A stretch of 11,797 nucleotides of DNA from a virus (Duplodnaviria; Heunggongvirae; Uroviricota; Caudoviricetes): IMG/VR virus record IMGVR_UViG_2740892233_000017; one strand, given 5' to 3'. This document shows positions 1-3,000 of this stretch, in pieces (positions within the stretch are counted from its first letter, which is position 1; every line of letters begins with the position of its first letter). The position numbers are program-made.

Positions 1-3000
1 TTAGCCGTTAAGTTTAACTGCCAGACCTGCGACATATTCCCCTTGATAACGAGCAATAGACAGTTCTTCCTGGCTTGGCTGGCGTGAGCCGTCACCGCCT
101 GCGATGGTGGTTGCGCCGTACGGCGTACCGCCGCGAACCTGTGAAACGTCAAATAATTCCTGCGCTGCGTAGCCAATGGGGACAATTACCATGCCGTGAT
201 GCGCAAGGGTCGTCCAGGTTGAAGTAATAGTTTGTTCCTGACCGCCGCCAGTACCGGTGGAACTAAAGACGCTCGCCAGTTTTCCGTATAGTGCGCCGGA
301 AGCCCACAGGCCGCCCGTCTGGTCGAGGAAGGTACGCATTTGACCGGACATGTTGCCAAAGCGGGTAGGTGTACCAAAAATAATGGCGTCGTAATCGGCC
401 AGTTCTTGCGGGGTTGCAACCGGTGCAGTTTGCGTTTTACCGCCTGCTTTTTCAAATAATTGCGGCGGCATGGTTTCCGGTACACGCTTAACGACAACTT
501 CTGCGCCATCGACTTTGCTTGCACCCTCAGCGACTGCGCGTGCCATCGTTTCAACATGTCTAAGGATATGGTTTATCATTTTGAAAAATATAATTTTATT
601 TCATCCTCCTGGTCACTTTGGGGCACGTCTGGGGCACGGGCATTAAGGACATTATTCAACATGGCAACTTGAGTCACGCTGCACTCAGGCATCCATGCAC
701 CATAAACATTGTAGACCATGCTGGCGCTGGAGTGCCCCATCTGTGATGCAATAAATGTCGGGTTTGCTCCGGCAGATAAAGCCCAGCACGCATAGGTATG
801 GCGTGACTGATACGCTTTACGGGATCGGATACCCGCTCTTTTTATTGCTGAATCCCATGTCGCTCCGATGGAGCTTACCGCGTAGTTAATACCAGCCTTG
901 TGATTCTTGCGAACGATTTGCGGACAGAAAACAAAAGTGCACTCGTGCAAAATTGTTCTTCCGTACTCGCGTAATTGAACAGTGATCTGATGCTGCCTGC
1001 TAAGACGAGTAAGCATCGCCTGGTTTTTAAGTGCTTCAATTGCTGGTGCCAGAAGATGTATAACCCGGTTAGTGCCTGCGTCGGTCTTTGGTAGCGTAAA
1101 ATCACCTATTTTTGTAAAATTTCGTCGCACTGTTATCGTGCCAGCTTTCAGGTCGATATCCTCCCATGCAAGTGCGGCAATTTCACCGTGTCGCATCCCT
1201 GTAAAAACAGCCACTGTCCAGAGGTTTTTGGTCTGTTGATGATGGCAGGCATCAATGAGACGGCTAAACTCATCTCTGGTCAGTGGATCCGGCACTGGTT
1301 TTGATTTCCTCAGCGGTGTTATTGAATTAAACGGGTTTTTCTCCAGATACCCGTTTTCGGCGGCAAAGCTGAACATTCCGGCTGTTGTTGTCATGTAATA
1401 GTTCACTGTGGGTACGGTTCTTCCTTTTCGGGACGTGCTGGTTTTCCTGCTTCCCTTTTCCCCGGTCAGTAAATCTTTCCTGATAAACAGCAGATCTTCT
1501 TTTGTAATCGATGACGCCAGCCTGCCAGGACCAAGCCTCGGTAGCATATTTTTCATCACTGATTGATAACGATTTAAGGCGTTACTACTGATTTCCATTG
1601 CTTTCAGAGTAAGCCATTTCTGTGCCAGTTCACCGACGGTGATATCTTTTTTTACCAGGCCAAATAGCTTCAGGTTAGGTGAGTCAGGGAATCGCTCGGC
1701 ATAATCAAACGTTCCCGTTCTGATTGCAAAGCAGACAGAAGCCCTTAACTCACCAGCGATCTTTCTGTTTTTCGGAGTATCGGGCACGCGAAGATTTTCG
1801 CGCACTCGTTTACCCCTGTACTTAAACGTTATTCGGAGTTTTCCTCCGTGATTTTCAACGCCGGCTGGATAGGCTGAATTCGCCATTGTTCCTCCTGCGT
1901 CCAAGAGCACGCTCAGGTTATACTCTTATGGACAAGAATTAAACATCCTGAGATGGTAAGGGTTGGTTTTTGATCCAAGTGTTGATGGTAGGAAGGTGAT
2001 AGAGACATTCGCTGTTTTTCTTTGGCGTTCCGTCGGGGGCGATTTGTTTATATTCTCTGCCGTTCATCCACGCACTGTCCCTGGCGCGTAATATTGTTCC
2101 TTTTCTCAGGCCTGTTACAGCCATTAAAAGCTCCAGTGTTACCCATTCATTCGCATTTATCTGTACAACAGGTGTGATGACTGGCTGAATGCCATGGTTA
2201 TGTTGGTTTACTAACTCGCGCATAAGTTGCCTCTGCATGTGTAAGAAAAAACCGCCCGAAGGCGGTTGTCAGTTGATTGATGTACGGCGCATTTTTCGAA
2301 GGCTGGCAATATGCTTTTCCTTCTCAATTTCCGCTTTAATCATATGCAGTTCGTTGTGCTCGATTCGCTCAAATTCTTCATTAAATGCACTAATTGAAGT
2401 GGCTCTGGTTCTGCCGTCGAGCCTTCGGTAGATCACCTGAGTCAGAGTTACCTTGCATATTTCTACCGGATAGTTGTTGGCATCAACGAAAGACTGCCCG
2501 CGCTGGATCAGGACGAACACTGGTTGTATTCCTTGAGTGCCATATCATAAACACGGCATGCCGAGAGGTGTGTTGTAGTCAACGTCGTTCGTATCCTGAA
2601 AAGTCCATGTGTTGTGACGGTAACTTCCGGGGCTTTGAGTTTCACTGCATCAACGATATGCTGATGTTTGCGCCTTTCGAATATAGAGCTGGATATAACC
2701 ACACTTGCTGTTAAACCGTAACTTTCAAATGTGATTTTCATGTCATTATCCTCGCAGTTAGCCGGGCAACAAAAATAAATAATGTTGTTCCTGCGAATAA
2801 CAGGATACCGCCCGTCATTAGAGAAAGGAAAAACAATATTAATGTACGCGGGTTGTTTCTCAAAATATTCTCTCTGTGATTCGCTCACTCTGACAATTCG
2901 TTGATCAAGTCACGGTATTTATTCAGTTCTTGCAACGCCTTACATGCACCCTCCCATCGTTTCTGTTTCCGCCCGGCGCGGCGCGCTTCTTTCCGTGATT

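Follow-up and report, generated by a model that had tools for sequence, protein, structure and literature searches.

The DNA analysed here, the window, is the complete 11,797-nucleotide stretch of a Caudoviricetes virus record (IMG/VR IMGVR_UViG_2740892233_000017). Its left end carries two open reading frames (ORFs) on the minus strand: a phage integrase gene (int) and a hybrid form of wrbA, the Escherichia coli gene into which the phage has inserted. The int gene occupies 576..1886 as annotated by the Prokaryotic Genome Annotation Pipeline (436 amino acids); the ORF extends to a GTG codon at 1910 (444 amino acids). The encoded tyrosine integrase combines an arm-DNA-binding domain and a catalytic domain (Pfam PF12167 and PF00589). 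Directly behind it lies the 192-codon hybrid wrbA ORF (1..579), which starts with MINHILRHV. The integrase TGA codon (578..576) and the hybrid ATG codon (579..577) share four nucleotides, 576..579, which read TCAT on the plus strand and ATGA on the coding strand, exactly as the original prediction had stated. The identical overlap is annotated in the genomes of the O104:H4 outbreak strain and of EDL933.

The region is the integrase-proximal (attL-type) junction of a lambdoid prophage of the 933W/Sp5/P13374 type inserted in wrbA. The junction was dissected in a four-way alignment on the wrbA coding strand, centred on TTGAAAC. The K-12 attB site reads ...ggacata TTGAAAC gatggca..., the attP site of free phage phi191 ...agacatg TTGAAAC catgaag..., the window junction ...agacatg TTGAAAC gatggca... 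and the far junction of the O104:H4 prophage ...ggacata TTGAAAC catgaag.... All four sequences fit a reciprocal crossover inside a 7-bp overlap, GTTTCAA, which they have in common and which lies at 548..554 of the window. The extended core (544..560) consists of the host arm CATC, the GTTTCAA core and the phage arm CATGTC; correspondingly, attB is CATC-GTTTCAA-TATGTC and attP is CATG-GTTTCAA-CATGTC. Imperfect inverted core arms thus flank the overlap, CATG/CATG in attP and CATC/TATG in attB. Genomes with an uninterrupted site match the junction through window position 560 with one mismatch; 5127 complete E. coli genomes have such a site. The attB site lies in wrbA codons 15-17. The alignment to uninterrupted wrbA that had been proposed for defining the att core therefore yields these 7 bp. 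The same 7 bp are annotated at 555-561 of the VT2-Sakai record AP000422 as "attachment site of Sakai-VT2 prophage", and the P13374 phage record starts at the core position of the window. That 933W/Sp5-type phages integrate at this wrbA site became known with the first phage sequences and is cited in later papers, which agrees with the earlier identification of wrbA as a known site of Stx2 (Shiga toxin 2) phages; a recent preprint quotes the site as CATCGTTTCAATATGTC. A second exact copy of TTCAACATG (core plus phage arm, 550-558) is present inside int at 655-663, 105 bp away, and may be a chance match.

On the host side of the core, the segment 1..547 (minus strand) holds wrbA from the last base of native codon 17 to the stop codon at 3..1. 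It is identical to K-12 wrbA in the alignment of the att sites and matches residues 12-198 of WrbA in the PDB. On the phage side, the start of the ORF (555..579, minus strand) reads ATG ATA AAC CAT ATC CTT AGA CAT G, encoding MINHILRH and the first base of V9. These 25 nucleotides are identical in the attP site of free phage phi191, where they also adjoin int and where the same ATG opens a 14-codon ORF. It follows from the four-way alignment that phage DNA begins only at 555 and extends upward from there. The N-terminus is thus phage-derived and not a natural variant, a reciprocal crossover accounting for all four aligned sites, and the phage does supply the in-frame ATG; its contribution, originally put at nine codons, comes down to eight full codons plus the opening base of the ninth. 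The core, TTGAAAC on the coding strand, runs from the second base of codon 9 through codon 10 to the second base of codon 11. Native H14 and I15 are matched by H8 and V9 of the hybrid, and valine also occurs naturally in place of I15 among other Enterobacteriaceae. The net result is an exchange of native residues 1-13 (MAKVLVLYYSMYG) for the seven residues MINHILR.

The reciprocal junction falls outside the window; the missing wrbA 5' end was located in the O104:H4 genome, which is 100% identical to the window over 1-6746 and carries this junction. There, the native promoter, the ribosome-binding site and the first codons now give MAKVLVLYYSMYGHIETMKH*. At this far junction (locus L005, positions 2590-3048, NC_018658.1; locus L003, positions 1062-1178), the wrbA promoter drives a 20-codon ORF, MAKVLVLYYSMYGHIETMKH*, pointing toward a same-strand gene of the Hok/Gef family about 330 nt downstream; in phi191 the annotation gives the latter gene as intact, in O104:H4 as a pseudogene.

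Repeats were found on both arms of the attachment site. On the integrase side, the direct repeats TGGGGCACG lie on the plus strand at 619-627 and 630-638 (619..638) with a spacing of 11 bp, and an inverted copy is found at 732-739. They are plausible candidates for arm-type integrase binding sites of the P' arm. With a mere 22 bp between the int stop codon and the core, they fall within the int coding region. Four copies of TGGGGC(A/G) are clustered on the other arm, the P arm, at the distal junction (positions 2751-2799 of locus L005).

The int region (window 400-2300) shows 99.2-100% DNA identity to VT2-Sakai, P13374 and phi191, and about 99% or more to many records of Stx1a, Stx2a and stx-less "PPwrbA" prophages. 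Over positions 1-2300, the window shows 100% identity to the genomes of the 2011 O104:H4 outbreak and of several other Shiga toxin-producing E. coli strains. The same integrase module therefore occurs in Stx1a, Stx2a and stx-less prophages alike; in the O104:H4 prophage, stx2a lies about 24 kb from the integrase-proximal end, whereas the window stops short of the late region.

Transcription across the junction could be followed in published data. Start sites in EDL933 have been mapped by Cappable-seq in eight growth conditions (PMC10469882, supplements). We placed them on the window by coordinates, with sequence identity over 512-772 and 1777-1995; like the junction anatomy, the starts so placed are observed features. 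The integrase start falls at 1908 on the minus strand (EDL933 1334844), 22 nt upstream of the int ATG, and was recorded in all eight conditions. A second minus-strand start, internal to int, falls at 701/700 (EDL933 1333637/1333636); it was recorded in six conditions and assigned to wrbA by the authors. This start is preceded by a -10 box, TACAAT (713..708), and lies 121-122 nt upstream of the hybrid ATG. No terminator was predicted on the minus strand from int to the end of the wrbA remnant, the only minus-strand prediction in 1-2600 being a terminator-like hairpin upstream of xis (2250..2267). Strand-specific RNA-seq is available for MG1655 lysogenised by the O104:H4 phage in wrbA and for its parent (PMC6580645). 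The wrbA counts were 774, 840 and 1371 in MG1655::phiO104 and 204, 183 and 573 in the parent, a log2 fold change of +0.93 that is not significant (PMC6580645). Since wrbA gene-body reads persist after removal of the native promoter, these data support transcription of the hybrid from phage promoters, presumably by read-through from the int promoter and from the int-internal start. The proposal that the wrbA remnant is transcribed from the int side is thus supported by a start active in all conditions, by the lack of a predicted terminator and by reads that are not reduced.

Other starts and promoter-like sites of the region were noted alongside. A weak promoter-like site on the minus strand (616..587), from which a leaderless mRNA would start at the hybrid ATG, was rejected: 9 of 12 positions match, sites of this kind were no more frequent in the scan than chance predicts, and no EDL933 start was reported there. 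On the plus strand, the motifs TCAACA and TATCAT, separated by a 17-nt spacer (551-579), form a promoter-like site whose -35 box overlaps the att core. This site fits an EDL933 start at 584 (plus strand; EDL933 1333520, two conditions) that reads into the int 3' end, and would yield an RNA antisense to that end. Finally, an EDL933 start at window position 4 (minus strand) falls 24 nt before yccJ, in the final codons of wrbA, so that yccJ could be expressed independently of wrbA and the prophage. Reads for yccJ are slightly higher in MG1655::phiO104 (log2 fold change +1.35, adjusted P value 0.25). A scan of 1-2600 against Rfam matched zero families.

Translation of the hybrid is a separate matter. 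The 25 nt upstream of its ATG give a duplex with the anti-Shine-Dalgarno sequence of +0.4 kcal/mol, versus -8.5 for native wrbA. No Shine-Dalgarno sequence is found within these 25 nt, the nearest AGGAGG lying 27-32 nt upstream. Such a leader suggests that the hybrid is translated at a low level. Reinitiation at the ATGA overlap would be possible on transcripts that include int. Transcripts starting at 700/701, by comparison, could not be coupled to int translation. The strongest alternative to a weakly translated by-product builds on this overlap: termination-reinitiation would be efficient, and a lysogen-specific, remodelled WrbA would be made whenever the integrase is made. The 4-nt overlap is exact, the int promoter was active throughout the EDL933 conditions, the stretch from int to the wrbA remnant lacks a predicted terminator, and several real gene pairs in the window share 4-nt overlaps. 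These points are offset by the lack of a Shine-Dalgarno sequence within 25 nt, by the uncoupled transcripts from the internal start and by the probable instability of a product lacking strand beta1; furthermore, no proteomic or ribosome-profiling record was found in the literature. In particular, the supplements of the EDL933 ribosome profiling (RIBOseq) study do not mention wrbA. An O157 proteomics paper that lists WrbA was set aside as uninformative, the strain being 933D, which is reported to be partially attenuated and without Stx2 and presumably lacks 933W. On balance, we regard efficient reinitiation as a doubtful, if serious, alternative.

A more elaborate version holds that the locus has been rewired, with the constitutive int promoter and the int-internal promoter taking the place of the stationary-phase wrbA promoter. 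In this scheme the remodelled WrbA, made by ATGA reinitiation, would have a residual or a new role, or its translation would keep ribosomes on the transcript. We consider such rewiring very unlikely.

A third alternative is that the phage repairs wrbA, that is, the hybrid keeps quinone oxidoreductase activity and lysogeny is physiologically neutral. The ORF is indeed in frame and carries the name wrbA in RefSeq. Its product scores well above the WrbA cut-offs of NCBIfam (TIGR01755 and NF002999), with 325.6 and 323 bits against 141 and 132.5, the former being the equivalog cut-off; moreover, another element, inserted at wrbA codon 4, rebuilds a near-native N-terminus (see below). Examination of the N-terminus argues otherwise. 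The NCBIfam match begins at profile position 12-13 of 200, positions 1-12 being lost, and the flavodoxin N-terminal models, which match residues 1-49 of native WrbA, give no match to the hybrid. Thirteen residues, comprising strand beta1 and the conserved YSMYG loop, are swapped for seven unrelated ones. The motif LVL(Y/F)YSMYGH(I/V)ETxA, in which the loop lies, is invariant or nearly so, being kept in all 26 natural Enterobacteriaceae homologues aligned and absent from the hybrid alone. AlphaFold2 (AF2) was run on the hybrid and on a canonical-like control with matched shallow alignments. The control was modelled with a pLDDT (predicted local distance difference test) of 71 and a pTM (predicted template modelling score) of 0.78; residues 2-8 form its beta1, and helix 1 begins at residue 13. 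For the hybrid, pLDDT dropped to 55 and pTM to 0.55; residues 2-21 were modelled as a single helix, without beta1, and beta2 was lost. These findings are soft evidence, in line with what is expected of a flavodoxin-like fold, in which loss of the central strand and of the loop that follows it should abolish cofactor binding and stable folding. On these grounds the hybrid has probably lost enzyme activity; the case for lost contacts with flavin mononucleotide is built on residue conservation, profile coverage and the AF2 control. The repair reading is therefore highly improbable, and the earlier suggestion that the insertion removes the conserved N-terminal strand and part of the loop holds, beta1 and the YSMYG loop before helix 1 being the parts replaced. 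As for the idea that the N-terminus is a natural wrbA allele that arose without any insertion, it has nothing beyond an intact ORF in its favour and is refuted by the four-way alignment, by the same 25 nt adjoining int in attP of the free phage, by the native 5' end of the 5127 uninterrupted genomes and by the far junction of the same prophage, which holds the 5' end that wrbA lacks here.

We therefore return to the reading of the hybrid as an incidental, inactive, transcribed product of a known integration event, which we consider very probable as a whole. In the sequence of events that we propose, the phage tyrosine integrase recombined attP (CATG-GTTTCAA-CATG) with attB (CATC-GTTTCAA-TATG), the crossover taking place in the 7-bp overlap. 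The native promoter, the Shine-Dalgarno sequence and the first 14 wrbA codons were thereby shifted about 61 kb to the other junction, and the remaining 183 codons landed 22 bp behind the integrase stop codon. The ATG that overlaps this stop happens to be in frame, creating the 192-codon hybrid ORF, which would be transcribed by read-through from the constitutive int promoter and from the int-internal start. The hybrid has no ribosome-binding site, no strand beta1 and no YSMYG loop, and for lack of these elements its product would most likely be incidental, weakly translated and enzymatically dead. Accordingly, wrbA would be effectively knocked out until the prophage excises.

Several points weigh on the other side. 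ATGA overlaps serve truly coupled gene pairs in the same phage, so that reinitiation after int could give protein. AF2, which does not predict stability, reached only modest confidence for the control as well. The start-site data come from EDL933, a strain other than that of the window. Because SOS genes are up in the MG1655 lysogens, part of the wrbA signal may originate from induced cells; the RNA-seq counts could thus partly reflect a spontaneously induced subpopulation. Lastly, a literature search turned up no study in which the hybrid protein or its activity was measured directly.

How often an in-frame start would arise by chance was estimated with simulated fusions to the phage's own DNA. 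In the required frame, an upstream ATG was met before a stop codon in 29-43% of the fusions, and within 10 codons in 8-9%. Of the 18 ORFs in the window that reach 100 amino acids or more, six end in ATGA. Thus, the in-frame ATG and the ATGA pattern are real yet statistically unremarkable, and nothing suggests that the hybrid of the Stx-type phages exceeds the status of a by-product. Related integrases (63-70% identity) were found at 13 loci (L006-L018) in other Enterobacterales, among them Pseudescherichia, Enterobacter, Citrobacter, Kluyvera and Trabulsiella. None of the 13 is at wrbA, and ten sit in the 5' part of yecE (…HVNCVEGNTTLYALPK…). Since the ten at yecE lack an ATGA overlap, the set provides no test of selection. 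At the yecE site, the int stop codon precedes the CATGTTAAC core by 14 nt, and this core resembles CATGTTGAAAC of the wrbA site.

The finding is real, correctly described and ordinary, the integration event itself being already known. No paper was found in the literature that addresses the chimeric N-terminus or the overlap at ATGA, two features that follow directly from the known event and that public annotation already contains. The hybrid is nonetheless widespread in databases. A 201-bp junction query found at least 80% coverage in 217 genomes, with 214 records at 99% identity or more, and the exact hybrid protein occurs on at least 1000 contigs. RefSeq calls it wrbA (WP_000607018.1), not a pseudogene. 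More than 200 complete E. coli genomes thus label the hybrid as an intact NAD(P)H:quinone oxidoreductase, a label that can mislead. In the preprint that quotes the site, excision of the prophage is read as a "G25A, V9I point mutation in wrbA", said to prevent reintegration, a reading that stems from using the hybrid annotation as the reference. Likewise, a cross-strain table of start sites lists the wrbA start as shifted by 71 nt. In lysogens of the 933W/Sp5/P13374 type, wrbA is best treated as inactivated, and oxidative-stress phenotypes of lysogens and of cured strains may need reinterpretation. The practical value of the analysis is therefore a warning about annotation; it opens no new biological question.

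The protein cluster that holds the hybrid at 90% identity is represented by a 436-residue integrase and contains integrases as well as WrbA proteins; the two may be chained through a gene call that fuses int and wrbA. WrbA proteins of odd length were also considered as other phage hybrids and turned out to be frameshifts, duplications and fusions, with the exception of an MSVKAR variant that belongs to a serine-recombinase element.

Farther to the right, the window is less straightforward. The 100% match to the O104:H4 Stx2a phage ends at 6746, beyond which the window forms a mosaic when set against any of the complete genomes searched; over the full window, none of the complete genomes reaches 80% coverage. 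Two runs of exactly 10 N (6747-6756 and 10028-10037) mark scaffold gaps, and the window is therefore a scaffold of three contigs. The early-left region of the phage contains two pairs of paralogous ORFs. One (8231-8686 and 10132-10485) has a common N-terminus, MSQLLNCI.TW.GR.S.HCTIKLIRIRK; the other (9921-10121 and 10647-10859) has a common C-terminus, ELEPWTPEGADPNYCWREVDPVD.ANEAMSYHND. These duplicated modules may have caused the assembly breaks.

The closest known systems are the attL junctions of 933W, VT2-Sakai (Sp5) and P13374/phi191 in wrbA, which share with the window an integrase region of about 99% DNA identity or more, the same GTTTCAA core and the position at codons 15-17. There is no difference within the junction; the difference lies beyond 6746, where the window is gapped and mosaic. 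The recombination machinery is reminiscent of lambda Int and its attP: arm-binding and catalytic domains, a 7-bp identical overlap, imperfect inverted core sites, an int gene adjoining attP and repeat clusters on both arms, as is generally known for lambda. It differs in the short distance from int to the core, which places the P' arm repeats within int, and in its target, here the 5' part of a protein-coding gene and not an intergenic site. Phage 21 and the e14 element at icd, like integrators at tRNA genes, also supply a substitute gene end with which the reading frame stays open. Those elements duplicate a homologous 3' end, and the target gene stays functional. Here, in contrast, the 5' end supplied is non-homologous and removes essential fold elements, promoter and ribosome-binding site. 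A different mobile element enters the 5' end of the same gene and likewise gives it a new N-terminus. This element, found in E. coli O125ac:H10 strain C 236-04A (NZ_CP109924.1; locus L019, positions 2714-5014), encodes a large serine recombinase of 547 amino acids and is inserted at wrbA codon 4. Unlike the Stx-type phage, it swaps only MAKV for MSVKARI. Strand beta1 and the YSMYGH loop are left intact, and the element provides the new ATG with a ribosome-binding site, AGGAGA, located 9 nt before it. With its near-native N-terminus, MSVKARILVLYYSMYGH, it appears to preserve wrbA, and provides an example of what a restoring insertion looks like.

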